Under the pieces are notes generated by a model that had not been told where the DNA came from, made no database searches, and saw only the letters and a program-made list of their open reading frames with translations. Both the position numbers and the translations under genes were made by a program. Of a stretch of DNA of 64,000 bases, positions 5,677 to 62,209 are shown piece by piece. Numbering within the stretch: the first letter of the stretch is position 1; every line of letters starts with the position of its first letter. Source of the DNA: Escherichia phage vB_EcoM_WFbE185; sequence record MK373778.1, one strand, 5' to 3'.

Positions 5677-7095
5677 TTATGGATATGTATAGATGATACC
5701 AGTTTCCAAAGCAGTTTTATGGATGACGTATCCATTACGTGATTCTTGAACATCAACTTCTGGATAGTCTTTCATCATCTTCTGAAGAGTGTAACGATGC
5801 AGGTAGTATTTACTATCTGCATCTTCAGTTTTCCAATCTTTACCTTCTTCAGTCATTTTTTGTATTTCATCCATAACCCACCAACCGCACCAGATGTAAG
5901 CTGAAGTACGATGTGGAAGAGGATGAACATAAGGTAATTCACCTTCTGGTTCTGGAGCAACTTTATCGGTTACCTGAACTTGTCCTTCTGCTGTAATAGT
6001 TTTGCTATCATAATCAGTAGCAGTAACGACGGCAGTCACTTCAATAGTTTGACTTCCAATAGATGAGGTATCAACGGTATATACATTAGTTGACCCTTCT
6101 ACAGGAGAAGAATCTTTCTTCCATGAATAAGCAATTTGTGCTTCTTCTGGTGCACCAGTAACATTAGCTGTAAATGTAGCCGAAGCATCTTGTTGAACAT
6201 TAATAGAAGGAGGAGTCAATGTAACCTGTGGATTCATTGTCTTCTTATTAACCGTTAATGATACTTCATTCGAAGTAACTTCCTTTGCATCATAATCTGT
6301 CGCAGTTACTTGGGCTACACATTTAATTCTTTTTACTCCACTTGTAGTTGGAGTATAGCTAAATGTAGAGTTAGTTTCTCCACCAATCTGTGAATCATCT
6401 ACATACCACTGATACGTAGCAGACGCTCCAACCGGTTGAGAAGCTAAGGCGGCAGTAAATTGAACTGGGGTTCCAATTACTCCGGCTGAAGGACTATTGG
6501 GAGTTACTGCCAACGTAGTTGTCTGCGTCTTTTTATTAACAGTCAGTGACACTTCATTAGAAGTAACGCTTAGTGCGTCATAATCTGTTGCGGTTACTTG
6601 AGCCACACACTTAATTCTTTTTACCCCGCTTTCGGCAGGAGTGTAATTGAATGTAGCGTTAGTTGCTTCGCCAACAGGAGAATCATCTACATACCATTGA
6701 TAAGTAGCGTTTGCGCCTGATGGCTGCGAAGCTAAAGCGGCAGTAAATTCAATAGCTGTTCCGATTACTCCAGCGTCAGGGCTATTAGGAGTTACAGCTA
6801 AGGTAGTCGTTTGTGTCTTATTTTGAACTGTGATAGTTGTAGAAGCTTCTGCTGTTTCAGCTTCAGCTTCTGGAACTGTATTTGTTGCAACTACTTTAAT
6901 AGACTTTTGACCTGCAGGTCCTTTTAACACATAATCAAAAGTTGCTTCAGCTCCATCTTGCGAAACATCATCTACAGTCCAAGCATATGTAATAGTTCCA
7001 CCTCCAGTTTCACCACTGGGAGTAGCAGTAAACTGCTGAGTCTGATCTATAACTCCAGTAGGTGTTTTAGGAGTTATATCAACTGTAAAAGCCAT
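5677..7095 (-). CDS. hoc: highly immunogenic outer capsid protein Hoc with four Ig-like domains
   Basis: 472 aa; N-terminus MAFTVDITPKTPTGVID and C-terminal capsid-binding region match T4 Hoc; an extra near-identical 96-aa Ig-like domain is present. Confidence 0.85.
   Translation of the reverse strand: MAFTVDITPKTPTGVIDQTQQFTATPSGETGGGTITYAWTVDDVSQDGAEATFDYVLKGPAGQKSIKVVATNTVPEAEAETAEASTTITVQNKTQTTTLAVTPNSPDAGVIGTAIEFTAALASQPSGANATYQWYVDDSPVGEATNATFNYTPAESGVKRIKCVAQVTATDYDALSVTSNEVSLTVNKKTQTTTLAVTPNSPSAGVIGTPVQFTAALASQPVGASATYQWYVDDSQIGGETNSTFSYTPTTSGVKRIKCVAQVTATDYDAKEVTSNEVSLTVNKKTMNPQVTLTPPSINVQQDASATFTANVTGAPEEAQIAYSWKKDSSPVEGSTNVYTVDTSSIGSQTIEVTAVVTATDYDSKTITAEGQVQVTDKVAPEPEGELPYVHPLPHRTSAYIWCGWWVMDEIQKMTEEGKDWKTEDADSKYYLHRYTLQKMMKDYPEVDVQESRNGYVIHKTALETGIIYTYP
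6241..6816 (-). repeat. hoc: in-frame tandem duplication (2 x 288 bp) encoding two near-identical Ig-like domains of Hoc
   Basis: Protein units aa 94-189 and 190-285 both run TQTTTLAVTPNSP...VKRIKCVAQVTATDYDA...SNEVSLTVNKK with about 85% identity. Confidence 0.8.
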
Positions 7096-18223: not shown

Positions 18224-18252
18224 AACGTTTTCCTCATGTTGTTGATGGGATG

Positions 18253-18282
18253 ATAGTATCACACATCCATGTGTTTGTAAAC
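18253..18282 (-). promoter_or_regulatory. early promoter (GTTTAC-N18-TACTAT) with -10 inside inverted repeat GGATG/CATCC
   Basis: -35 overlaps the alt stop; -10 flanked by 5-bp inverted repeat; drives ORF 17930-18223. Confidence 0.5.
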
Positions 18283-24763: not shown

Positions 24764-25129
24764 TTAGATATCAAATTCGTTAAGAACTACATCAAAGATT
24801 GCTTCGAGATGTTCAGGTTTAGCTCGGTTACTCAGGATATGACGAATCCAAGTTTTAACCAGAAGTTTACGATTAACACCATTCCAGCAAGGATGAGTAC
24901 CTAAATCACGTTGACGGAAGTCATCATCTAAAGCGATTTTGAAATTAGAACCTTCCATCGTGATTGAAACCGTGATGCCATTTTCAAATCGCATATAAAC
25001 GTAATTAGGAGTCATGCACTGTTCGATTTCACAAACTGTACCGTTTTCGTGTTTCCATAAGCAAATAACTTCAGAAGAACCAGCAATACCGTTAGAAACA
25101 TATTTACGTTCGAAGTTGATGTAGTTCAT
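24764..25129 (-). CDS. hypothetical protein (30.x cluster)
   Basis: 121-aa ORF with its own early promoter at 25171-25199. Confidence 0.5.
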   Translation of the reverse strand: MNYINFERKYVSNGIAGSSEVICLWKHENGTVCEIEQCMTPNYVYMRFENGITVSITMEGSNFKIALDDDFRQRDLGTHPCWNGVNRKLLVKTWIRHILSNRAKPEHLEAIFDVVLNEFDI

Positions 25130-25170
25130 TTTATTCTCCAGATGTTTAAGTTGTTTGTTGGTACAGGTCT

Positions 25171-25199
25171 ATAATAACATAACCTGTACCAAAGTAAAC
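25171..25199 (-). promoter_or_regulatory. early promoter (GTTTAC-N17-TATTAT) with -10 inside 8-bp inverted repeat GGTACAGG/CCTGTACC
   Basis: Drives ORF 24764-25129; inverted repeat arms at 25160-25167 and 25183-25190. Confidence 0.5.
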
Positions 25200-28932: not shown

Positions 28933-29169
28933 TTATAGTGTTCCATATACTCGAGTTGCTTCAACAAGACCATCACTGCCTAATTTAAGATTAGTAATTT
29001 GGTCACCATCTTTAGGATTAACGATTATGAGAAAAGAACGTGGAGATTCTTGAATAACTCGTAATGTTGCATCTTGGAAACGTTCAGACACTTTATTGAT
29101 GAGTGCTTGAGCAAATTCTTTTACTTTAATCTGAAATTCGTGTACTGTAATTGGGTTTTCACTTAGCAT
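28933..29169 (-). CDS. hypothetical protein, first gene after an early promoter
   Basis: 78-aa ORF; hairpin-embedded early promoter at 29198-29227. Confidence 0.45.
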   Translation of the reverse strand: MLSENPITVHEFQIKVKEFAQALINKVSERFQDATLRVIQESPRSFLIIVNPKDGDQITNLKLGSDGLVEATRVYGTL

Positions 29170-29197
29170 TTCTATTTCCTCATTTGTTGGTAGAGTT

Positions 29198-29227
29198 ATA
29201 GTATCACAACTCTACCATGTTGTAAAC
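29198..29227 (-). promoter_or_regulatory. early promoter (GTTTAC-N18-TACTAT) with -10 inside 9-bp inverted repeat; heads the transcription unit containing DAHP synthase and cd
   Basis: Inverted repeat GGTAGAGTT / AACTCTACC (29189-29197 and 29208-29216) brackets the -10. Confidence 0.5.
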
Positions 29228-29737: not shown

Positions 29738-29909
29738 TTAACCATTCAATTGCCTGGTCGACGTTATCAAATATACCACCGTCCAAACGTTCTTCATGCT
29801 CATAGTCCAGCACATCAATACCGAACTGTCCATTTACTAAAGGCCAGGCTACAAACAAATATTCTTTATGCTGTTCGATTGTACGAAAAATCTTTTCGAT
29901 GTTATTCAT
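29718..29909 (-). CDS. hypothetical small acidic protein (cd-pseT interval)
   Basis: 63-aa ORF overlapping both neighbours. Confidence 0.4.
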   Translation of the reverse strand: MNNIEKIFRTIEQHKEYLFVAWPLVNGQFGIDVLDYEHEERLDGGIFDNVDQAIEWLNENYVR

Positions 29910-30624
29910 AAGTTTTCCATTTTCTACCTAGTTGCCAGTCCGGGCTGTTTAATCTAGGATCGTTTATATCGGTGGTAGAAGACTTTTTACCTGAAATATG
30001 GATTAACCATTTTCTAGATTTAGCTGCTTTAGAATAATTTTCTTTAGCCTTATCACTTCTAACCTTGCCTTTATTGGATTTGGATATTTTATTACCCCAT
30101 TCAATAATAGACTCTTCACTCATAAAATCTTTAACATTCTTACCATACATAGGATTATTTTCGCCTTTAAACGTATTACCATTTTTAAGACGGGTTTCTT
30201 TAGATTTAATCCCATGACCTGGCAATTTCTTACCTTTAATCCAAGGAACCACACCATTATTAAATCGTTCTTTTTGCGATTTAGAAATTTTTGCAGATGT
30301 TTCTGGGCTTGAATTAACATTAATACGATTTTCATTAATATAATCCCAGCCTCCTTCTCCGCCAGGTTTCAAATTGTAATTAGTATCCAGTTTTATAAAT
30401 TCTTTAGTTACTAATTTGGCTTCTAAATCATATGCTTCTTGTTTAGTTTCAAATATTTTTATGATTTCTTTATTAAAAGAATCTTTACCATATTTTGATT
30501 CAGCATTTTTAAAAGCTGTACCGGAACCTAAATAAGAATCATTTTCTTTTAAGGTCTTATGAACCCCTATATAAATTTTGTTGTTAACCAAACATGTGGT
30601 TTTATACACAGTGTATTTTTCCAT
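29902..30624 (-). CDS. free-standing GIY-YIG homing endonuclease (Seg-like)
   Basis: GIY-YIG variant motif VYKTTCLVNNKIYIGVH at N-terminus; Lys-rich C-terminal DNA-binding region; ATG MEKYTVYK with GAGGTGA RBS (track start is GTG). Confidence 0.8.
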   Translation of the reverse strand: MEKYTVYKTTCLVNNKIYIGVHKTLKENDSYLGSGTAFKNAESKYGKDSFNKEIIKIFETKQEAYDLEAKLVTKEFIKLDTNYNLKPGGEGGWDYINENRINVNSSPETSAKISKSQKERFNNGVVPWIKGKKLPGHGIKSKETRLKNGNTFKGENNPMYGKNVKDFMSEESIIEWGNKISKSNKGKVRSDKAKENYSKAAKSRKWLIHISGKKSSTTDINDPRLNSPDWQLGRKWKTYE

Positions 30625-30671
30625 TAGAATCACCTCTATAGATATTTATATTCATCTATGGAGATTTCTAA

Positions 30672-31758
<1,087 letters not shown>

Positions 31759-31759
<1 letters not shown>

Positions 31760-32058
31760 TATTTTATTCCTAAGAAAGTTTCAAGAATACGAATGTTATG
31801 CTCGCGCCGGTCTTTATTAATTTCAGCAACGTTTTTATTAATTGACGTACTTCTAACGTTTGAAGAAATAAATTTAATCATATGACTTTTGAGTTGTTGC
31901 AAATCCAACCCTTTTTCTTTAGCAGCTTTACGAAGAGCTTTACCTGCTTCATCTAGTGCCTTTGCTGCATCTTTGTCATAATTGACAAGTGACATTCCAC
32001 GGCAGATATCAATATACTCGTCAGACCGTTTGATGTAATTCTCTAGTAATGTTTTCAT
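31759..32058 (-). CDS. hypothetical protein
   Basis: 99-aa ORF preceded by a hairpin-embedded early promoter (32087-32116). Confidence 0.5.
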
Positions 32059-32086
32059 TTAGATTTCCTCAATTATCCATAGGAGC

Positions 32087-32116
32087 ATTATACTCTGCTC
32101 CCGAGAGTTTGTAAAC
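32087..32116 (-). promoter_or_regulatory. early promoter (GTTTAC-N18-TATAAT) with -10 inside inverted repeat GGAGCA/TGCTCC
   Basis: Core 18-mer GAGCATTATACTCTGCTC (plus-strand text) recurs at 61403-61420; drives ORF 31759-32058. Confidence 0.5.
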
Positions 32117-33462: not shown

Positions 33463-33491
33463 AATTTTCTCCTCGTGTTGTTGATAAACCC

Positions 33492-33521
33492 ATAGTATCA
33501 CCATCCTTGGTGTTTGTAAAC
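33492..33521 (-). promoter_or_regulatory. early promoter (GTTTAC-N18-TACTAT) for alc
   Basis: -10 lies 30 nt upstream of the alc ATG; spacer contains CACC...GGTG inverted repeat. Confidence 0.5.
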
Positions 33522-34657: not shown

Positions 34658-34674
34658 TCAGTTAGTTTTTTTAA

Positions 34675-34704
34675 ATTGTACCACAATCCTTGTGGTATGT
34701 AAAC
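34675..34704 (-). promoter_or_regulatory. early promoter (GTTTAC-N18-TACAAT) for rnlA
   Basis: -35 overlaps the denA stop; spacer contains CCACAA/TTGTGG inverted repeat. Confidence 0.45.
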
Positions 34705-36374: not shown

Positions 36375-38630
36375 TTAAAGCTTACAAGCAGAACAATCTT
36401 CAGCTTTAGGTGTTTCTAATTCATAGTCATCTGTGCCTGACCCATCACGAGTGTTATGATAGTAGAGGTTTTTTCCGCCAAAGTACCAGAAGTAAAGCAG
36501 ATCGTCAAGCATTACTGACATTGGCACTTTACCTTTCTCAAATACTGCAGGGTCATAGTAAGTATTAGCAGAAGCAGATTGGCACACCCATTTCAACATG
36601 ATAGCAACTTGGGTCAAATAAGGTTTATTACCTTTCTTAGCAAGTTTCCACGCGTAGTCGTAAAGACCCATGTTATGTTCTATATTAGGAACAACCTGAC
36701 GGAAGTTGCCTTCTTTAGATTCTTTAATACTCACTGGACCACGCGGCGGTTCAATCCCGTTTGTAGAGTTTGATACTTGACTGCTTGACTCACAAGGCAT
36801 GAGTGCAGACAACGTTGAGTTACGAATTCCATGTTCTTTGAGTTCAGCTCGAAGTTCTTCCCAATCACATACGTAGTTCGGGGCTGCGATTTGGTCAATC
36901 TTTTTATTGTACCAGTCGATAGGTAATTCGCCTCTAGACCATTTAGTGTCTGAATAATACTCGCAACATCCTTTTTCTTTGGCGAGTTTGATTGAAGCTT
37001 TGATAAGGCCATATTGCAATCTCTCAAACAATTCATGAGTCAAATCGTTAGCGTCTTCATATGAAGCGAAGTTAGAAGCTAACCATGCAGCATAGTTCGT
37101 AACACCAACACCAAGATTACGACGCTTTTTGGCTTTTAAAGCTTCTGGAACCGGATAATCTTGATAGTCTAACAGGTTATCAAGTGCACGTACTTGTACT
37201 TCAGCAAGTTCATTAATTTTATCTTGGTCTTGCCAATCAAATTTATCTAACACGAATGCAGATAATGTGCATAAACCAATTTCAGCATCAGGACCATTCA
37301 CATCATTAGTTGGAATAGCGATTTCACAACATAAGTTACTCTGACGAATTGGAGCTTTTTCACGAATAAATGGAGTGTAGTTGTTCGTGTTATCAACGAA
37401 TTGCGGATAAATTCGAGCGGTGCCAGAACGTTCAGTCATGAACAATTCAAAGAGTTCTAGTGCTTTGATTCTTTTCTTTCTGATTGTTGGGTCTTTTTCA
37501 GCTTTCTCATAAAGCTCACGGAATTTATCTTGATCTTCAAAGAACGAGTAGTATAGTTCGCCTGACATTTCGTGAGGGCTAAATAAAGTAATATAATCAT
37601 TTTTACCAAGGCGTTCCATCATAAGGTCATTAATCTGAATTCCGTAGTCCATATGTCGAATACGGTTTTCATCCACGCCTTTGTTATTTTTCAGAACTAA
37701 TAGGTTCTCTACTTCTAAGTGCCACATCGGATAATACGCTGTAGCAGCACCACCACGAATACCACCTTGAGAACAAGATTTTACTGCAGTTTGGAAATGT
37801 TTCCAGAATGGAATAACACCCGTATGTCGAACTTCACCCATACCGATCTTAGAACCTTCTGCACGAAGCATACCAACGTTGATACCAATACCAGCTCGTT
37901 TAGAAATATATTCAATAATTGATGCTGAAGTTTTGTTAATAGATTTTAACGAATCACCGGCTTCAATAACTACACAACTAGAGAACTGGCGAGTTGGAGT
38001 ACGAGCACCTGCCATAATTGGGGTTGGCAATGAAACTTGATGAGTAGAAACGGCATCATAAAAACGAATAATATGTTTCAAACGGTCATGAGTTTCGTCT
38101 TGGTGTAAGGCCATGCCAATAGCCATGATAGCAAACTGTGGAGTTTCATAAATCTTCCCAGTTGTTTTATCTTTAACTAGATATTTTTCTTTAAGCTGCA
38201 TAGCACCAGCATAAGTCAGGTCAAAATCTCGCTCATGTTTAATCTGAGAATCAAGATAAATGATTTCTTCTGCTGAATATTGAGACAACAGCTCAGGATC
38301 ATATTTGCCTTCATTAACACAATAAGAAATATGGTCGATAAAAGCAGGAGGTTCAAACTGGCCATACACATCTTTACGAAGTGCAAACATTAATCCTTTA
38401 GCGGCAACATACTGATAATCAGGTTCTTCGACAGAAATCGAGTTAGCTGCAACTTTAATACAAATCTTCTGAATATCTTTGGTGCTCATCCCGTCAACAA
38501 GATGGGTCTTAATTTCTTCGTACAATTCATATGGGTCAATTTGTGTTCCTTCACACTGCCAAGTTAAGACTTGAATAATTTTCTGTGCATCAAAATTTTG
38601 GGATACCCCACTGCTCTTAGTTACTTGCAT
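36375..38630 (-). CDS. nrdA: ribonucleotide reductase large subunit
   Basis: 751 aa; matches T4 NrdA over essentially the whole length (active-site NLCCEI, C-terminal CSACKL). Confidence 0.95.
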   Translation of the reverse strand: MQVTKSSGVSQNFDAQKIIQVLTWQCEGTQIDPYELYEEIKTHLVDGMSTKDIQKICIKVAANSISVEEPDYQYVAAKGLMFALRKDVYGQFEPPAFIDHISYCVNEGKYDPELLSQYSAEEIIYLDSQIKHERDFDLTYAGAMQLKEKYLVKDKTTGKIYETPQFAIMAIGMALHQDETHDRLKHIIRFYDAVSTHQVSLPTPIMAGARTPTRQFSSCVVIEAGDSLKSINKTSASIIEYISKRAGIGINVGMLRAEGSKIGMGEVRHTGVIPFWKHFQTAVKSCSQGGIRGGAATAYYPMWHLEVENLLVLKNNKGVDENRIRHMDYGIQINDLMMERLGKNDYITLFSPHEMSGELYYSFFEDQDKFRELYEKAEKDPTIRKKRIKALELFELFMTERSGTARIYPQFVDNTNNYTPFIREKAPIRQSNLCCEIAIPTNDVNGPDAEIGLCTLSAFVLDKFDWQDQDKINELAEVQVRALDNLLDYQDYPVPEALKAKKRRNLGVGVTNYAAWLASNFASYEDANDLTHELFERLQYGLIKASIKLAKEKGCCEYYSDTKWSRGELPIDWYNKKIDQIAAPNYVCDWEELRAELKEHGIRNSTLSALMPCESSSQVSNSTNGIEPPRGPVSIKESKEGNFRQVVPNIEHNMGLYDYAWKLAKKGNKPYLTQVAIMLKWVCQSASANTYYDPAVFEKGKVPMSVMLDDLLYFWYFGGKNLYYHNTRDGSGTDDYELETPKAEDCSACKL

Positions 38631-38926
38631 ATGTCCTCTATATTAAATTCATCTTTAAAAAGTTTATTAACCACTAGAGCTATTATATCACCATGACAGG
38701 CTTTTGGTTTACATGTGCATCCTAATCGCATCCCACGTAAAGGTTCAAGATGAGCTTTTGTGATTTCTCCACTTCTAATTCTTTTAATAAAATCCTTTTT
38801 GAAAAGCTCAATAGCTTCTTCTCGAGAAGAGGCATCCTTGCCTACATAATTTCCCCAGAATGTGCCACGGTGAATATTAACATCAAAATCTGATTTGTAT
38901 TTATTCACTACGCGGCATATTTTCAT
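38621..38926 (-). CDS. hypothetical Cys/His-motif protein (nrdA.1-like)
   Basis: 101 aa; LGCTCKPKACHGD motif; 10-nt overlap with nrdA start. Confidence 0.5.
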   Translation of the reverse strand: MKICRVVNKYKSDFDVNIHRGTFWGNYVGKDASSREEAIELFKKDFIKRIRSGEITKAHLEPLRGMRLGCTCKPKACHGDIIALVVNKLFKDEFNIEDICK

Positions 38927-39144
38927 GTTACGTCAACCTCAAACCAACAGTCATAAACATTATCCAAAGGATTATGCTTATTATATTCATACACCTTTGT
39001 AACAGAGAGAACTCTCTCTTCAAAGCCGTCAACATTAATTGTCTCAGTTTTAATAGGGAGCTCAAGAGGATTAGCATTATAAAGTTCAGCTAACATCTTT
39101 TTACTACCATGTCCTTTACGAACAATACGAATATTGATACCCAT
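38923..39144 (-). CDS. hypothetical protein (nrdA.2-like)
   Basis: 73-aa ORF, 4-nt overlap. Confidence 0.45.
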   Translation of the reverse strand: MGINIRIVRKGHGSKKMLAELYNANPLELPIKTETINVDGFEERVLSVTKVYEYNKHNPLDNVYDCWFEVDVT

Positions 39145-39392
39145 TAGTTACGTTCCAATTCTTCATATTCTTTAGGTGTCAAGACTGTGATATTGAAATA
39201 AACCAACGGTTCTTTTTCTATACCGAATCCACCACAGAATTCACGATATTCATAAATTCGTTCATGTGAATAACAAATGAATCGTTCACCTTTAACTGTG
39301 ATTTCACTATTCGGTGAAGGGATATCCAGTTCACTTGGATTTTTCATTTCAAAAATTGTGGTGCCATATGAATTAATAAAACGTAAAATCAT
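39144..39392 (-). CDS. hypothetical protein
   Basis: 82-aa ORF between td and the nrdA.x genes. Confidence 0.45.
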   Translation of the reverse strand: MILRFINSYGTTIFEMKNPSELDIPSPNSEITVKGERFICYSHERIYEYREFCGGFGIEKEPLVYFNITVLTPKEYEELERN

Positions 39393-40254: not shown

Positions 40255-40838
40255 TTATATACACTCTCAGTAATTTCGGTGAGTTCATCGATTCTGTAGT
40301 AATGAGATTCTACCATAGAACGTTGAAGCATAATATCCTGGACGAAATCTTTATCAAGTTGAACATCTGAATTAACACGACATTTCTTAATGATTTTAGT
40401 CATCACGATTTCATCGGCATAAGGCAATGCTTGTTTAAGTAGAGCAGGACCGCCGATAACAGATACATCAACATGTTCAGTAGAAAGTTTAAACGGTACA
40501 TCAGTTGCAGGGCTAAACAGGTTAATTTCACCACCTGTTACCAAGGTAATAAATTCAGATTGGGTGATATAGAACCGTGCAAGTTCATCAGTTTTAGTCC
40601 TAGGCAGTGTTCTGGCCATATCAGTGACAACCACATGAGTACGATCTGGGAGTAGACGAGGTAATGATGCAAAAGTCTTAGCACCCATAACCATTACAGT
40701 GTTTTTAGTGCGAGCAACAAAGTTACTCATATCTTGTTTGATATGCTTCCATGGAAGTCCGTCACCTAATCCAAAAGCATATTCCAGTTTATCATCAACT
40801 GTTTTAGACGAGGCACATGCGAATACTAATTTAAGCAT
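40251..40838 (-). CDS. frd: dihydrofolate reductase
   Basis: Start ATG MLKLVF with AAGGA RBS; matches T4 Frd (VIGGPALL..., C-terminal LTESVYK); ATGA overlap with td. Confidence 0.85.
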   Translation of the reverse strand: MLKLVFACASSKTVDDKLEYAFGLGDGLPWKHIKQDMSNFVARTKNTVMVMGAKTFASLPRLLPDRTHVVVTDMARTLPRTKTDELARFYITQSEFITLVTGGEINLFSPATDVPFKLSTEHVDVSVIGGPALLKQALPYADEIVMTKIIKKCRVNSDVQLDKDFVQDIMLQRSMVESHYYRIDELTEITESVYK

Positions 40839-41079
40839 TTTTAAGTCCTTTAATAACTTTTTGGATTTGTGATTTAGAAGAAACCAAATCAGTCTGGATT
40901 TGACAGCCATCGGTCGGGTCAAATGTTATAACACAAACGCGAGGTTTTGTTGTGTATCGCCCAGACAAATCAAATGCGTCGCCAATGAATTCGGCCAAAT
41001 CCGGATGGTCTAAATTAACTGAAGTATAAACTTCATATCCGACATCAGCGCCTTGAGAGTATTCAACAACAACATTCAT
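40831..41079 (-). CDS. hypothetical protein (frd.1-like)
   Basis: 82-aa ORF overlapping the frd start. Confidence 0.5.
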   Translation of the reverse strand: MNVVVEYSQGADVGYEVYTSVNLDHPDLAEFIGDAFDLSGRYTTKPRVCVITFDPTDGCQIQTDLVSSKSQIQKVIKGLKNA

Positions 41080-41081
41080 AA

Positions 41082-41330
41082 TTATTTCCTCAGATTTTTC
41101 TTAACAACTTTCCAATCAACTTTAAACGATTCAACATCAGAGTGGTGAATCCAGAATCCTGCACTTTCACCATCTTCGTAGAGTGGACATCCATCGCATT
41201 CTTCGTTCCAACCCATTTCACGTAAAGCTTCTTCAGCTTGTTCAAGGAGTTCAGCGTCTTTACCGACGATGTTGAAGTACCATTTACCTCTAACTTCCGA
41301 ATCTTTGATGCTCTGGCGTTGCAATCTCAT
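41082..41330 (-). CDS. hypothetical protein (frd.2-like)
   Basis: 82-aa ORF with early promoter at 41365-41394. Confidence 0.5.
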   Translation of the reverse strand: MRLQRQSIKDSEVRGKWYFNIVGKDAELLEQAEEALREMGWNEECDGCPLYEDGESAGFWIHHSDVESFKVDWKVVKKNLRK

Positions 41331-41364
41331 TTTATTCTCCTCTTCACTTTTATTTTATAGGGCT

Positions 41365-41394
41365 ACTATAACATAGCCCTATCTTGTTATAAAC
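41365..41394 (-). promoter_or_regulatory. early promoter (GTTTAT-N18-TATAGT) with -10 inside inverted repeat GGGCTA/TAGCCC
   Basis: Drives ORF 41082-41330. Confidence 0.45.
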
Positions 41395-42916: not shown

Positions 42917-43570
42917 TTAATACTTACATGATTTGATTGTTTCTATGAACAATTTCTTAGCAGCATTTCTATCGATTTGAAGTATTTTTCGATATGCCTT
43001 TAATTTGGTAGAATAATTTTGCCAGACTAAATTGTCAGTGAGTTCGTCGTGCTTATCTATAATATTCAAAAACGAGTCTAACAATAAGAAAGTCTCAAAT
43101 GAAATTATATTGCTTTGTAGCAATTTGAATATGTAGCTCGACTGAACGTTGTTATTATAATCAAATATCTCTTGAAGCGCACTAACTTCAACTTTCTTAC
43201 TGAAATAGTAGATGTTACGTACGTCTTCAGCAAACGTCTCTTTAGCTTGTTTGAGACGTCCAATATATTCCCTATAGAAAACTAATGCATCAGCGTCTGA
43301 TATCTCACCAATCCATGCGTCTTGGTTAGCAACTAAGTTGCTTATGAATATCAAGGTGAGTTCCTTCAATTTATATTTCTCTGCTAGTTTTTCAAAGAAA
43401 TATTTATCTCGGCGTTTTTGATACGCATTATCCGAAACACGCATGCACCAGTTATATTTGATTACGTCATACCGACCACCAAAGTGGTTTTTGCACATCA
43501 AGTATAGTTTATATACTGATTTACCGTTAATATAACGTTCTCCGTCAGGAGGCATGCGTATTTTAATCAT
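42917..43570 (-). CDS. 59: helicase loader gp59
   Basis: 217 aa as in T4; MIKIRMPPDGERYINGKSVYKLYLM... matches T4 gp59. Confidence 0.92.
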   Translation of the reverse strand: MIKIRMPPDGERYINGKSVYKLYLMCKNHFGGRYDVIKYNWCMRVSDNAYQKRRDKYFFEKLAEKYKLKELTLIFISNLVANQDAWIGEISDADALVFYREYIGRLKQAKETFAEDVRNIYYFSKKVEVSALQEIFDYNNNVQSSYIFKLLQSNIISFETFLLLDSFLNIIDKHDELTDNLVWQNYSTKLKAYRKILQIDRNAAKKLFIETIKSCKY

Positions 43571-44246
43571 AGTTCCATCCAGGCCATTTTGAAGATTTAA
43601 GTCTATACGTAACTAGAGATGCAGAAATATTAAAAACATCTGAAACTTCTGTGCATGATGAGTATTTTATACCATCAATAATTATAGGTTTTTGTTTTTT
43701 AATAGTTCTTTCTTTAGAATGCGGCTTTGAATTTGCTATTCTAAGAGCTTCTTTGGTTGAATCAGGCATCGGCTTATTCGTTTTTCGCCCTTTTCGGACT
43801 TTACTCAAAGCTAATTTATGAGCTTCAGATAGTTTCCTACCCTTATTAGGGGATGGTATTTTTCTTTCTAATCTGGTTTTAGATACTTTAGCCTTAGTCT
43901 CTTCAGATCTAGGTTTCCCTATTTTAGAAAGTGAAATAGCCCTTTTAGCTTCATCACTTTGTTTTTTACCAGGGCCACCTTTACCACCTGGAACCAGGTT
44001 ATAAGTATCAGTTCGCAAAACAAAATCTTCATTAACCAATTCTGCTTCTTTTTTATAGGCGTCCTTGGCATTATCATATTCATAAAGAACTTCAGTATAA
44101 AAATTTTTTAGCCCGTATTTAGCTTTGGCCGCTAATATAGCGCGACCAGACCCAATATACCAATCTTTCTCTTTATGTTTTTTGTGTACACCTATATAAA
44201 TTTTACCATTTATTTTATTGGTAGTTTTATACACAACGTATTTCAT
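43563..44246 (-). CDS. free-standing GIY-YIG homing endonuclease (Seg-like), inserted between genes 33 and 59
   Basis: 227 aa; GIY-YIG variant motif VVYKTTNKINGKIYIGVH; Lys/Arg-rich C-terminal region; overlaps the gp59 start by 8 nt. Confidence 0.8.
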   Translation of the reverse strand: MKYVVYKTTNKINGKIYIGVHKKHKEKDWYIGSGRAILAAKAKYGLKNFYTEVLYEYDNAKDAYKKEAELVNEDFVLRTDTYNLVPGGKGGPGKKQSDEAKRAISLSKIGKPRSEETKAKVSKTRLERKIPSPNKGRKLSEAHKLALSKVRKGRKTNKPMPDSTKEALRIANSKPHSKERTIKKQKPIIIDGIKYSSCTEVSDVFNISASLVTYRLKSSKWPGWNYD

Positions 44247-50868: not shown

Positions 50869-50873
50869 ATTTA

Positions 50874-50891
50874 GGGAGACTTCGGTCTCCC
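50874..50891 (+). terminator. terminator after gene 35
   Basis: GGGAGAC-UUCG-GUCUCCC followed by AUUUUUG; the gene 36 late promoter follows. Confidence 0.6.
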
Positions 50892-50898
50892 ATTTTTG

Positions 50899-58107: not shown

Positions 58108-58740
58108 TCACAGTACGTTAGTTACAAGGGTAATGATTTCTTTGGACACATTAGGGAAGTCAATGTAAGTATATTTACCACCGATCTTAATCTTAACATC
58201 ATTTTCAAGAGAAGTAAACAGTTTTGATTCAGTTTCTGACATGTTGTATGCAAAGATTCTAAGAGCGCCATCTCGACGAATTTCGATCTGACGAATACCT
58301 AGAACTCGTTTTGCAAATCGAACTTCTAAGTTACTACGGTTTTCACCAATTTCTTTAACTTCAACTTTATCTTTAATATTTTCAAAAACAAAGTTTGCTA
58401 GTTCATGCATTTCAGGAGTAACTCCACGTGCTTTTCTGGTGTTACGTTTCTGAAGAAGTTCTGGAGCATTTTCTTGAGCAAATAGGTCTGCAGCTTTTTG
58501 GATAATATCCATTGCTTCGCCTGTTGCTATAAGTCCATCACCGGATTTTTCGACTAAACCTTTCTTAATCAATACACCAATGTTAGAGTTAACAACCGAC
58601 GCATTGTATTCTGCTTCCAGAGCTTCACGGACATTGGCAGCAGTGGTGAAGTTATTCTTAATGATATAAACCATTATTGCAGCAGTTTTTTCATTCAGAG
58701 CGTTTTCAGAAGCTTTGATGATGTAAGTAACTTTAGACAT
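58108..58740 (-). CDS. motA: MotA middle-transcription activator
   Basis: 210 aa; MSKVTYIIKAS...NSNIGVLIKKGLVEKSGDGLI matches T4 MotA. Confidence 0.9.
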   Translation of the reverse strand: MSKVTYIIKASENALNEKTAAIMVYIIKNNFTTAANVREALEAEYNASVVNSNIGVLIKKGLVEKSGDGLIATGEAMDIIQKAADLFAQENAPELLQKRNTRKARGVTPEMHELANFVFENIKDKVEVKEIGENRSNLEVRFAKRVLGIRQIEIRRDGALRIFAYNMSETESKLFTSLENDVKIKIGGKYTYIDFPNVSKEIITLVTNVL

Positions 58741-58806
58741 TTTATTTCTCCAAATTAGTATTTGTTTTGATAGGTCTATAATATCATGTTTGAAGCAAAA
58801 GTAAAC
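58732..58806 (-). repeat. promoter/RBS/start cassette, copy 1 (motA)
   Basis: 36-nt stretch 58761-58796 identical to 59083-59118; 19-nt RBS-plus-start stretch 58732-58750 identical to 59052-59070. Confidence 0.7.
58778..58806 (-). promoter_or_regulatory. early promoter (GTTTAC-N17-TATTAT) for motA
   Basis: Part of a duplicated promoter/RBS cassette (second copy 59100-59128). Confidence 0.5.
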
Positions 58807-58844
58807 TTTATTTTGGGCTCTTTTTCCAAAAGCCCTGGTAAAAT

Positions 58845-59060
58845 TTACAAACTCATTTCTTTAATAAGGCCAATAAGTTTTGCCTTTTTAGAACGAAGCT
58901 TTTCTAAATGATGTCCATTTGAACCGCGAACCACTAAAGAATTGATTTCAACTTCTAAGAAATTTAATTCTTCAACAAGTGCTTTACGGGGAGCATTCAT
59001 ACCAGGTTTAACTTTACCGAAACGAGTAGTTGTGTTTTGGGTTAATTTCATTTTAGACAT
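58845..59060 (-). CDS. hypothetical protein (motA.1-like)
   Basis: 71-aa basic ORF; promoter and RBS near-identical to motA. Confidence 0.5.
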   Translation of the reverse strand: MSKMKLTQNTTTRFGKVKPGMNAPRKALVEELNFLEVEINSLVVRGSNGHHLEKLRSKKAKLIGLIKEMSL

Positions 59061-59128
59061 TTTATTTCTCCAATTTGGTTGTTTTGTTTTGATAGGTCTA
59101 TAATATCATGTTTGAAGCACGTGTAAAC
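59052..59128 (-). repeat. promoter/RBS/start cassette, copy 2 (motA.1-like)
   Basis: See copy 1; both ORFs begin ATG TCT AAA. Confidence 0.7.
59100..59128 (-). promoter_or_regulatory. early promoter (GTTTAC-N17-TATTAT) for motA.1-like ORF
   Basis: 36-nt identity with the motA promoter copy. Confidence 0.5.
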
Positions 59129-59154
59129 TGTTTTGTGAGGAAAAAATGCACAAA

Positions 59155-60915: not shown

Positions 60916-61362
60916 TTAGTAACTCTGCAGAATGAATTTGAAATTATCAGCCAGAAGACGGTTCATTTCAGTGAGTGTTTGATATTCTGATGTATGGTTG
61001 CGAGTGAATGCCAGAGCCAATTGACCTTTACCATAACCAGTGGTCAGTGGTTTCATGTTCTTAGCTGCAACAAAGATTACGTCATATTCAATATTGTTAG
61101 TGCCCATGGTACGGGCTAGTTGCGAACGGCCTTGACGAATGTGAGAAAGAATTGCATCCAACCCTTGTTTAGAACGTTGACGTCCTACAAAGAATCGAGC
61201 TGCTACTTGTCGCCAATCAGATGAACCTTTAACGAAGAAGTAAAAACCTTCACGAGAACGAAACTCTTTAGAAACTTCAGAACCGTATTCGCCATTACAA
61301 ACTACTGCAACAACTTCACCGCCAACTGCCAGAAGGTCTTTACGAGTTAAATATTTGGACAT
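60916..61362 (-). CDS. ndd: nucleoid disruption protein Ndd
   Basis: 148 aa; [13 protein letters not shown]...[14 protein letters not shown]...[21 protein letters not shown]...[10 protein letters not shown] matches T4 Ndd. Confidence 0.85.
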
Positions 61363-61406
61363 GCTAATTTCCTCAATTGATTAATGTTTTTGTAATCCAT
61401 GAGAGC

Positions 61407-61436
61407 ATTATACTCTGCTCTCAAGAGTTTGTACAA
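61407..61436 (-). promoter_or_regulatory. early promoter (TTGTAC-N18-TATAAT) for ndd, -10 inside inverted repeat GAGAGCA/TGCTCTC
   Basis: Near-duplicate of the 32087-32116 cassette. Confidence 0.45.
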
Positions 61437-61438
61437 TT

Positions 61439-61639
61439 TTATTCGGCCATATCAGAACGTTCAAAAAGCTCTTCAACAGTTAAACATTCAGTGTCATCTT
61501 CAATAAAGAATCGAGTCCAACACGTTGGGGCGATACAGTTATGAGTTTGTCCGGCGATAGAAGCTACACGAATAAGCTGCTGACCGTTATTCAGAACAAA
61601 TTTTTCACCAATTTCAACATCTTTAAAAAGCTTAGCCAT
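61439..61639 (-). CDS. hypothetical protein (ndd.x-like)
   Basis: 66-aa ORF with GAGGAA RBS and early promoter at 61668-61697. Confidence 0.45.
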   Translation of the reverse strand: MAKLFKDVEIGEKFVLNNGQQLIRVASIAGQTHNCIAPTCWTRFFIEDDTECLTVEELFERSDMAE

Positions 61640-61667
61640 TTTGTGTTCCTCATGTTTCAGTAGGACT

Positions 61668-61697
61668 ACTATACCATAATCCTACCTTGTTGTAAAC
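61668..61697 (-). promoter_or_regulatory. early promoter (GTTTAC-N18-TATAGT) with -10 inside inverted repeat TAGGA/TCCTA
   Basis: Drives ORF 61439-61639; similar to the 62180-62209 cassette. Confidence 0.45.
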
Positions 61698-61889: not shown

Positions 61890-62153
61890 TCATATCTCAA
61901 CTTCCGCGAGTTCCATATATCCTTTGTTGATAACCTCTTTAAGGTCTTTAGAAAGAATAACACCAAAATGGTCGTTCATATGTCCATTAACTAAACGAGT
62001 TATTTCGGCTTCAGATGACATATAAGGCACGTCTGAGTCCCAATGAGATAGTCCCAAATGGGTATAAATCATCCCTTCGTCATCTGCAGTGTTGTACATT
62101 GAAACAAATTCGCCTGTTACTTTATGTTTTGCGTAGAAAAATTTAAATTTCAT
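61890..62153 (-). CDS. hypothetical protein (ndd.x-like)
   Basis: 87-aa ORF with early promoter at 62180-62209. Confidence 0.45.
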   Translation of the reverse strand: MKFKFFYAKHKVTGEFVSMYNTADDEGMIYTHLGLSHWDSDVPYMSSEAEITRLVNGHMNDHFGVILSKDLKEVINKGYMELAEVEI

Positions 62154-62179
62154 GATGTTATCCTCTTTTAGATAGGACT

Positions 62180-62209
62180 ACTATATCATAGTCCTACTTA
62201 GTTGTAAAC
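62180..62209 (-). promoter_or_regulatory. early promoter (GTTTAC-N18-TATAGT) with -10 inside inverted repeat TAGGACT/AGTCCTA
   Basis: Drives ORF 61890-62153; lies just downstream of the denB stop. Confidence 0.45.

Follow-up and report, generated by a model that had tools for sequence, protein, structure and literature searches.

Promoter-early stem-loop (PeSL) cassettes were defined in phages phi1 and RB49, where five stem-loop positions were distinguished, the commonest being inside the promoter spacer or over the -10 element (PMC2839356), and were later extended to PST/T4 and nt-1/KVP40, with the consensus TTTACW N17 TAYWAT and stems of the form AGNA..TCNT (Comeau 2014; PMC4122927). The termination of upstream transcription by PeSLs and the formation of mini-circles by cassette recombination are experimental results from RB49 and phi1 only; when inserted downstream of a promoter and ahead of lacZ, the RB49 PeSL211/210 stem-loop reduced expression to the same extent as rrnB T1 (PMC2839356). 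The present analysis concerns the early promoters of Escherichia phage vB_EcoM_WFbE185 (MK373778.1; the stretch of 64,000 nucleotides (nt) analysed is called the window), and in particular the minus-strand cassette at 29167..29227, which lies between the cd.3 and cd.2 homologues and corresponds by orthology to Pe133.3, an annotated early promoter of T4. In about a third of the early promoters, read-through RNA can fold with the -10 element in the loop of a hairpin.

A resemblance of these promoters to PeSL cassettes, noted in a first-pass annotation of the window, was borne out at the sequence level. The elements combine a strong sigma-70-type early promoter, placed in an intergenic gap on the early-gene strand, with a stable stem-loop overlapping the -10 element; they are bounded by an upstream stop codon and by a downstream Shine-Dalgarno (SD) sequence and ATG, are repeated through the early region, and are associated with indels between relatives (one of five in comparison with Mosigvirus mar005p1). 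They are PeSL-type cassettes, an already described kind of element, and no new kind of system is revealed. As in RB49/phi1, where the subclass with the stem-loop over the -10 element was confirmed in RB49 (GGGGGTA gtaata TACCCCC), the hairpins have no U-run and the cassettes are dispersed repeats in small-gene regions, associated with indels. The differences lie in the -35 element (GTTTAC here, TTGACA in RB49/phi1), in the arms (mixed sequence here, G-run/C-run there) and, with respect to RB49, in the loops (8-13 nt here, 6 nt there) and the dyad, which is 1 nt further upstream here (centre 24.5 versus 25.5). The type most frequent in RB49, in which the hairpin occupies the spacer, has as its only counterpart here a different class with an AAGGA loop; in RB49 (NC_005066, 112-140 kb, L030) this commonest hairpin, AGGGGATC..GATCCCCT, fills the spacer exactly, the final T of its 3' arm doubling as the first T of the -10 element. 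The PeSLs of PST/T4 and nt-1/KVP40 share the promoter consensus, and their AGNA-loop-TCNT form fits the AGGA..TCCT arms found here, whereas they are said in a figure legend to lie 'just upstream of the promoter' (PMC4122927), which fits the terminator-plus-promoter cassettes 59128, 58806, 41844 and 25643 of the window and not the -10-centred ones.

What is new here is the fixed register of the hairpins and its explanation, the presence of the architecture across five genera, the strand-asymmetry argument for RNA, and the complementary distribution with upstream terminators. PeSL architecture with a fixed register thus reaches Mosigvirus, Dhakavirus, Gaprivervirus and Marfavirus, and strand asymmetry provides a sequence-only argument for action as RNA in read-through transcripts over a DNA cruciform or operator. 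Any reuse of early promoters as parts is also affected, since the same 45 nt carry a candidate RNA element. The annotation of transcription units in T4-like therapeutic phages is helped, the hairpins not being ordinary terminators, and the sites of small-gene gain and loss become easier to predict.

The window covers an early region of Mosigvirus type (RB69 group, T4-like): a piece of about 6 kb around site 29227 shares 95-99% identity with many coliphages of that genus, among them PNJ-9, vB_EcoM_G53 and JK45, and the T4 map is collinear with the window from about gene 29 to rIIB. The genes surrounding the 29227 cassette are carried on the minus strand. Early promoters were sought as GTTTAC (≤1 mismatch), N16-19 and a TATAAT-like hexamer, the TTGTAC site 61436 being added, which gave 17 plausible minus-strand early promoters in the 64-kb window, each followed by an SD and an ATG and of the general form GTTTAC, N17-18, TAnnnT with TGn (sigma-70 type, extended -10). 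In the whole genome of a close relative, 47 of 50 candidate promoters were on the early-gene strand and about 14-17 candidates had a -10-centred hairpin; the largest arm family, TAGGACTA..TAGTCCTA, was present there in about seven copies.

Hairpins centred on the -10 element

The promoters were folded as 46-nt RNAs starting from the -35 element, and z-scores were obtained against dinucleotide shuffles. Seven of the 17 (62209, 61697, 61436, 41394, 32116, 29227 and 25199) were found to have a minimum free energy (MFE) of -12 kcal/mol or lower with the -10 element in the loop, with MFE values of -12 to -18 kcal/mol and z-scores of -2.8 to -5.3. The same threshold was reached by 3.0% of 1025 control windows placed on other TAnnnT hexamers and by 3.6% of all windows, and shuffles with both hexamers held fixed gave at most two strong folds in 17. 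The hairpins at seven of the ten sites named in the first-pass annotation are real and far above chance, and an equal frequency of repeats around random TATAAT-like hexamers, which that annotation had named as the finding that would overturn its claim, was not observed (7/17 versus 3.0%). The sequences were present at all ten sites as described. Seven of the eight repeats said to bracket the -10 element are the strong hairpins listed above, whereas the eighth, 18248-18268, is at chance: the early promoter 3' of alt (18237..18282, minus strand) has a 5-bp GGATG/CATCC repeat round its -10 element, with an MFE of -5.1 and a z-score of +0.62. The two repeats assigned to spacers fared less well, 33492-33521 being at chance (z +0.11) and 34675-34704, which forms an 8-bp stem with a 3-nt loop when folded as RNA, being borderline (z -1.85). 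GTTTAC, given as the -35 element, does not hold at 61436 (TTGTAC) or 41394 (GTTTAT). The statement that the repeat sequences differ between sites holds only in part: the arms in the window fall into five or more families, yet several of the sites are paralogous (62209/61697 and 32116/61436).

At the cd.3/cd.2 cassette, the -35 element GTTTAC occupies 29227-29222 and the -10 element TACTAT 29203-29198, with the SD near 29181 and the ATG at 29169. Its 5' arm, TGGTAGAGTTGT (29217-29206), and 3' arm, ATAACTCTACCA (29199-29188), give an MFE of -17.2 kcal/mol and a z-score of -5.34, and the stem reaches 12 pairs when G-U pairs are counted. More generally, the sense strand of these promoters can fold as a hairpin of 6-13 bp, with a loop of 8-13 nt that holds the -10 element and a dyad at -12/-11, the axis falling between the first and second base of the -10 element. 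The 5' arm, at about -24 to -16, takes up the variable portion of the spacer and is complementary to the discriminator/start region; the loop consists of TGn and the -10 region, and the 3' arm is this discriminator/start region, at about -7 to +3. Beyond it come an A-rich leader and then the SD and ATG, 25-45 nt past the -10 element, with the SD 8-25 nt outside the hairpin. On the upstream side, the open reading frame (ORF) before the hairpin promoters of the window ends anywhere from a 1-nt overlap with the -35 element to 12 nt before it. A-rich runs (aaaaagta, aaaata, taaaaca), possible counterparts of the AT-rich, UP-like stretch of PeSL cassettes, are seen before most -35 boxes, inside the 3' end of the upstream ORF. 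A scan against Rfam 15, at the gathering score, gave no match anywhere in the window.

The register of the hairpins was determined in promoters from the window, T4 (L004), a Dhakavirus (L005), a Gaprivervirus (L006), a Klebsiella Marfavirus (L007) and 17 T4-like contigs of IMG/VR (L008-L024); these contigs were obtained by PseT alignment, which was used instead of a single-protein scan with Cd.2 that gave 2, and GenBank phage records were added. Stems of 6 bp or more were present in 52 unique promoters, and in a frame with the start of the -10 element at index 24 the dyad of 27 of these was at 24.5 or 25.0. In a detection-free profile of 90 unique windows from five genera (Mosigvirus, Tequatrovirus, Dhakavirus, Gaprivervirus and Marfavirus), 7 or more Watson-Crick pairs out of 11 were reached by 27 windows with the centre at 24.5 and by a further 11, which have 17-nt spacers, with the centre at 25.0; no window reached this count at 24.0 or 25.5. 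This shared register spans at least seven unrelated arm sequences. It is fixed because the extended -10 element, (a/g)TGnTAnnnT, is partly self-complementary about the axis and because the loop is the smallest that encloses the -10 element; A or G at -16 can pair with T at -7 in 58 of 59 sequences, and T with A/G and G-U pairs also occur. Exceptions to the register were found at the frd.1 promoter, where in some genera the dyad is 3 nt upstream and the whole -10 element falls in the 3' arm, and in RB49, where it is 1 nt downstream.

Pairing in this register was further evaluated in an ungapped and unselected alignment (A2) of 59 unique promoters with 18-nt spacers, with the helix formed by columns 11-21 and 30-40. 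Paired cells amounted to 62.7%, versus 55.2 +/- 1.2 in shuffles (0/500 reached the observed value) and 31-46% when the partner was slid, and the covariation score was 0.324 versus 0.216 in shuffles (0/500), figures obtained from promoters that are in part related. At the orthologous 30.7 promoters, coliphages carry the arms GGTACAGGT/ACCTGTACC and Klebsiella phages GGTGTAGGAGTA/TACTCTTACACC, in the same register, and this hairpin is also kept at the orthologous promoter in T4 and in Gaprivervirus and Dhakavirus-like contigs, while four arm types were found among the orthologous frd.1 promoters. One-sided changes that give G-U pairs were seen in L008 (A>G, cd.2), in L020 (C>T, 30.7) and in T4 (T-G, cd.2), and in the frd.1 orthologue of Mosigvirus mar005p1 two changes in the 3' arm, TGGTCCTAT, give two G-U pairs. 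The earlier statement that it is the structure that is conserved was upheld by the covariation in register, by the different arms at orthologous promoters and by the fixed dyad in five genera. Hairpins with GGTAGGACT/AGTCCTACC arms (L017, L018, L021 and L024) were considered as cd.3/cd.2 orthologues with three compensatory pairs and rejected, as no promoter precedes cd.2 there. T4 carries orthologous -10 hairpins at Pe133.3 (cd.3/cd.2), 30.8/30.7 and frd.2; in the first of these, the 14-nt loop TTGTGATATTATAG (NC_000866 133300-133313; L004:13301-13314) sits between 7-bp inverted repeats and is flagged in the record as 'inverted complement of previously reported sequence', an inversion that is probably an old sequencing or cloning artefact at a palindrome rather than a real flip between the arms.

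Strand asymmetry and read-through RNA

In 27 of 28 hairpin promoters, it was the sense strand that gave the more stable fold, the mean difference from the antisense strand being -3.2 kcal/mol; among the hairpin-less promoters no bias was seen, 20 of 51 being sense-favoured and 31 the other way. Since the promoter consensus itself adds to the sense bias, the -10 region was also swapped for a neutral GAAA loop, and the arms alone then favoured the sense strand in 19 cases and the antisense strand in 3, with 4 equal (p ~8e-4). This comparison of folds was used in place of a strict mismatch count, which took in doubtful outer pairs of the GGGAGCA family. A duplex palindrome needs symmetry in the DNA, and G-U pairs are tolerated only in the sense RNA, so that the asymmetry favours a hairpin of RNA; on this evidence from the sequences, action of the hairpin as RNA is favoured, though not proven. 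The cruciform and the DNA operator, both offered in the first-pass annotation, are disfavoured by the strand-asymmetric pairing, by the more stable sense fold and by arms that differ between sites; the reading most favoured by the data, a hairpin of RNA present in read-through transcripts alone, was not among the mechanisms it offered.

Transcripts made from sigma-70 promoters start about 7 nt after the -10 element. The transcript of a cassette's own promoter would thus start at or after the 3' arm and be without the 5' arm, so that only RNA from upstream promoters could form the hairpin: read-through transcripts from upstream early promoters would contain both arms and fold, and the cassette's own transcript would be unable to do so. 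The read-through hairpin would then attenuate or insulate the upstream transcription unit, either through termination or pausing or as a barrier at the 3' end or to processing, with effects on RNA stability or on translation as alternative outcomes at the RNA level. An RNA hairpin specific to read-through transcripts and acting as an attenuator or insulator is, with moderate confidence, the most likely mechanism, its attenuating or insulating step being suggested as most likely by context and by analogy with the RB49 PeSL211/210 stem-loop (AGGGGAT cacgt ATCCCCT, at RB49 123294), which also has no T-run.

A role of this kind fits the distribution of terminators, the abutment of stop codons and the other RNA pairings made by promoter spacers. 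The window promoters without an embedded hairpin but with upstream room, 59128, 58806, 41844 and 25643, have a canonical GC-rich terminator just 5' of the -35 element (4/4), and none was found before the seven hairpin promoters. Across all loci, an upstream stop codon lies within 15 nt of the -35 element in 40 of 43 hairpin promoters, versus 39 of 62 others (p 4e-4). The embedded hairpin may accordingly stand in place of the GC-rich terminator that is found before early promoters with a longer intergenic gap. Like intrinsic terminators, the hairpins would be stable structures of nascent RNA at the end of a gene, and in the window the two kinds occupy different early promoters; unlike intrinsic terminators, they have large loops of 8-13 nt, only moderately GC-rich stems and no U-run. 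The translational hairpins of T4 with an internal promoter (e, soc, 49 and I-TevI; PMC3014915) are similar in that the 5' strand lies before the start site and the structure forms only in read-through, but there the ribosome-binding site is sequestered and the promoter is late or middle, whereas here the promoter is early and the SD is outside the hairpin.

Several observations weigh against this mechanism or the case for RNA. No U-run or T-run follows any of the sense-strand -10 hairpins, the tails being A-rich (aacaaat, tctaaaag), and the terminator caller flags none of them; a reading as canonical intrinsic terminators was rejected for want of a U-run. Across all loci, strong upstream hairpins precede 4 of 43 hairpin promoters and 15 of 62 others, which is a trend only (p 0.07). 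The strict count of internal transition mismatches gave 12 G-T versus 6 A-C (p 0.24), and a clearer G-T bias was obtained only when the doubtful outer pairs were ignored; moreover, part of the G-T excess could have arisen without selection, from a C>T bias that accompanies transcription and affects the non-template strand. Finally, the promoters compared are related as orthologues and paralogues, so that the shuffle and Wilcoxon figures overstate independence, although the slid-partner controls retain this relatedness.

Alternative explanations and dispersed repeats

The hairpins might have no function of their own, arising incidentally from the partly self-complementary extended -10 element, from the duplication of cassettes and from complementarity that occurs by chance in an unconstrained spacer. 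Indeed, the promoter consensus is enough by itself to produce the pair at columns 21/30 (G or A with T at -7), many of the sites are paralogous and about two thirds of the early promoters have no hairpin. Nevertheless, shuffling outside the hexamers yields at most 2 strong folds in 17 where 7 were observed, orthologues across genera keep the hairpin with different arms through changes that are compensatory or give G-U pairs, and the hairpins go with promoters that abut the upstream ORF. This explanation is considered unlikely, if slightly more probable than those that follow.

A structure in DNA is slightly less probable. In this proposal, a cruciform or hairpin extruded under negative supercoiling would expose or hide the -10 element and so tune initiation or the shut-off of early promoters, which would agree with a dyad locked to the -10 element, with sites that are near-perfect 24-bp palindromes, such as 62173-62196, and with the shut-off of T4 early promoters, described as unexplained in a review (PMC2988021). 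The pairing is, however, strand-asymmetric, as each G-T wobble of the sense strand would correspond to an A-C mismatch in the opposite cruciform arm, and the dyad moves by 3 nt between genera at frd.1 and by 1 nt in RB49. Moreover, stems of 6-9 bp with loops of 8-13 nt are, as a rule, poor cruciform formers. The register, for its part, is already explained by the self-complementary extended -10 element.

The cassettes form dispersed direct-repeat families (D2, D4, D6, D8, D9 and D13) of 46-64 nt with 61-89% identity, and five indels were found between the window and Mosigvirus mar005p1. The clearest, at 58815-59052, is a 322-nt unit with ORF 58845-59060 (71 aa) and two flanking cassette copies of about 85 nt (D4, 89%; D13, 84%), whereas mar005p1, which is 97% identical, lacks the unit and has a single cassette copy (its blastn subject ranges share 85 nt). 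Such an arrangement is what has been proposed for PeSL-mediated shuffling. In RB32-type Tequatroviruses, cd.2 is separated from the cd.3/cd.2 hairpin promoter by about 520 nt of additional DNA, directly 3' of the cassette. As dispersed direct repeats of 50-85 bp, the cassettes would, as a side effect, allow the homologous deletion or insertion of the small genes between them; homology between cassettes is sufficient to explain these two indels, and nothing implicates the hairpin itself. The recombination module envisaged in the first-pass annotation is accordingly retained as homology between dispersed cassettes, seen at the 322-nt and cd.3/cd.2 indels, with no link to the hairpin as such, and the comparison of cassette positions with gene-content breakpoints that it called for gave one cassette-flanked indel in five against mar005p1, the other four having no flanking cassette repeats.

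A stronger version, in which the stem-loop itself is the recombination device and a structure-specific enzyme (e.g., endonuclease VII) or strand exchange drives shuffling and mini-circle formation, would account for the mini-circle crossover mapped within a PeSL loop in RB49 (PMC2839356), for indels located at cassettes and for the T4 record in which the 14-nt loop of Pe133.3 was once reported inverted. It is nevertheless very improbable, since the clear cassette-flanked indel involves cassettes without a -10 hairpin and is explained by about 85 nt of direct homology, two of the four indels without cassette-repeat flanks add a putative homing-endonuclease ORF, and strand-asymmetric pairing has no rationale in a model of duplex DNA. 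An operator at which a dimeric phage or host DNA-binding protein would cover the -10 element and repress some early promoters can be set aside as the least credible proposal, since, although the TAGGACTA-N8-TAGTCCTA family recurs about seven times in the related genome with conserved arms overlapping the -10 element, at least seven unrelated arm sequences share one geometry, half-sites of the TAGGACTA family have diverged in ways that preserve pairing in RNA only (TAGGGCTA with TGGTCCTA and TAGGATTA with TAGTCCTA), the same half-site with duplex symmetry is not found everywhere, as a palindromic operator would have it, and no candidate regulator was identified.

Other cassettes, terminators and spacer classes

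The remaining six hairpin cassettes of the window are also on the minus strand. The 30.8/30.7 cassette (25127..25199) has its -35 element at 25199-25194, a 17-nt spacer, the -10 element TATTAT at 25176-25171 and the ATG at 25129; its arms, TTGGTACAGGT (25192-25182) and ACCTGTACCAA (25168-25158), give an MFE of -17.9 and a z-score of -4.52. The frd.2/frd.1 cassette (41328..41394; z -4.19) has the -35 element GTTTAT at 41394-41389, the -10 element TATAGT at 41370-41365 and the arms ATAGGGCTA (41382-41374) and TAGCCCTAT (41365-41357). The cassette 5' of ORF 31759-32058 (32056..32116; z -2.81) has its -35 element at 32116-32111, the -10 element TATAAT at 32092-32087 and the arms GGAGCA (32101-32096) and TGCTCC (32087-32082), in a stem lengthened by one G-U pair, and the arm variants AGGAGCA/TGCTCCT and TGGGAGCA/TGCTCCCA are found in relatives. 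It is a paralogue (85% over 46 nt) of the 61436 cassette (61360..61436; z -2.80; family D8), which has the -35 element TTGTAC at 61436-61431, the -10 element TATAAT at 61412-61407 and the arms TGAGAGCA (61423-61416) and TGCTCTCA (61407-61400). The 61697 cassette (61637..61697; z -3.15; family D6) has its -35 element at 61697-61692, the -10 element TATAGT at 61673-61668 and the arms GTAGGATTA (61685-61677) and TAGTCCTAC (61668-61660), with one U-G wobble. The 62209 cassette (62151..62209; z -2.95), 512 nt away and 81% identical to it, has its -35 element at 62209-62204, the -10 element TATAGT at 62185-62180 and the arms TAGGACTA (62196-62189) and TAGTCCTA (62180-62173).

Among the hairpin-less promoters, the paired cassettes 58732-58815 and 59052-59137 (minus strand) are direct repeats of about 85 nt that flank ORF 58845-59060, with a terminator hairpin 5' of the -35 element; before promoter 59128 this is GGGAGCCGAAGCTCCC at 59170-59155. 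On the same strand, the canonical terminator GGGAGACTTCGGTCTCCC followed by TTTT lies just 5' of promoter 41844, at 41893-41876, and occurs again at 25697-25680, before promoter 25643. The GGGAGACTTCGGTCTCCC element has a UUCG loop and T-runs on both sides, is present in at least four copies (41893-41876, 25697-25680, 2296-2325 and 50869-50898) and, from its position where convergent or tandem units meet, seems to be a bidirectional terminator module that has been used repeatedly.

A second class of spacer element, with the hairpin inside the spacer, has a conserved SD-like loop, AAGGAyy, and stems of 4-6 bp that covary (CCAC/GTGG, CACC/GGTG and GCAC/GTGC), the TGn of the extended -10 element forming the 3' arm. 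AAGGA was found in the spacer of 9 of 59 unique promoters, with a flanking stem in 9 of 9. In the window, the class is represented on the minus strand at 34659-34704, where TACCAC aaggatt GTGGTA has its 3' arm at TGn and the start of the -10 element, and at the rnlA/alc junction promoter 33476-33521, where the hairpin CACC aaggat GGTG is weak; elsewhere, it occurs at L004:47042-47087, L005:16387-16432 and 29834-29879, L006:27045-27090, L007:28863-28908, and L008:1514-1559 and 2699-2744. A third class is defined by 10-14 nt of perfect complementarity between the part of the spacer just after the -35 element (TTCTCCTCTAGTTG or a similar sequence) and the downstream SD region. This pairing was found in 3 of 47 early promoters of the Mosigvirus mar005p1 genome (0.04 expected), the sites being the minus-strand promoters 52464, 10961 and 56079 of mar005p1 (OZ035759.1), and also at T4 136336 (L004:16292-16337), the alc promoter. 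Judging from this complementarity, the ribosome-binding site would be hidden in read-through RNA and not in the promoter's own transcript. It is tentatively suggested, as a generalisation that is more doubtful than the mechanism proposed for the -10 hairpins, that the spacer of T4-type early promoters is a general second code at the RNA level, kept by compensatory evolution in at least five Straboviridae genera. Its three designs, the -10 hairpin of strict register, the spacer hairpin with an AAGGA loop and the anti-SD spacer, may treat read-through and own transcripts differently, and such a code could be one phage example of a coupling between promoters and terminators that extends more widely.

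Some differences in gene content from mar005p1 have no cassette flanks. Indels of small genes were found at 38632-39159 (ORFs 38621-38926 and 38923-39144) and at 40849-41082 (ORF 40831-41079); ORFs 40831-41079 and 41082-41330, of equal size, were considered as a tandem duplication and rejected, as they have no similarity. The insertion 29879-30691 adds ORF 29902-30633, present among close relatives only in PNJ-9, and this ORF is taken to be a putative homing-endonuclease gene, the PNJ-9 features under the match including the SegD homing endonuclease. The insertion 43571-44243 adds ORF 43563-44246, beside the gene 59 homologue; by position only, this ORF is taken to be a further putative homing-endonuclease gene, T4 having segG near there. 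A tandem direct repeat of 288 nt with 76% identity (family D1) lies at 6239-6814, inside ORF 5677-7095.

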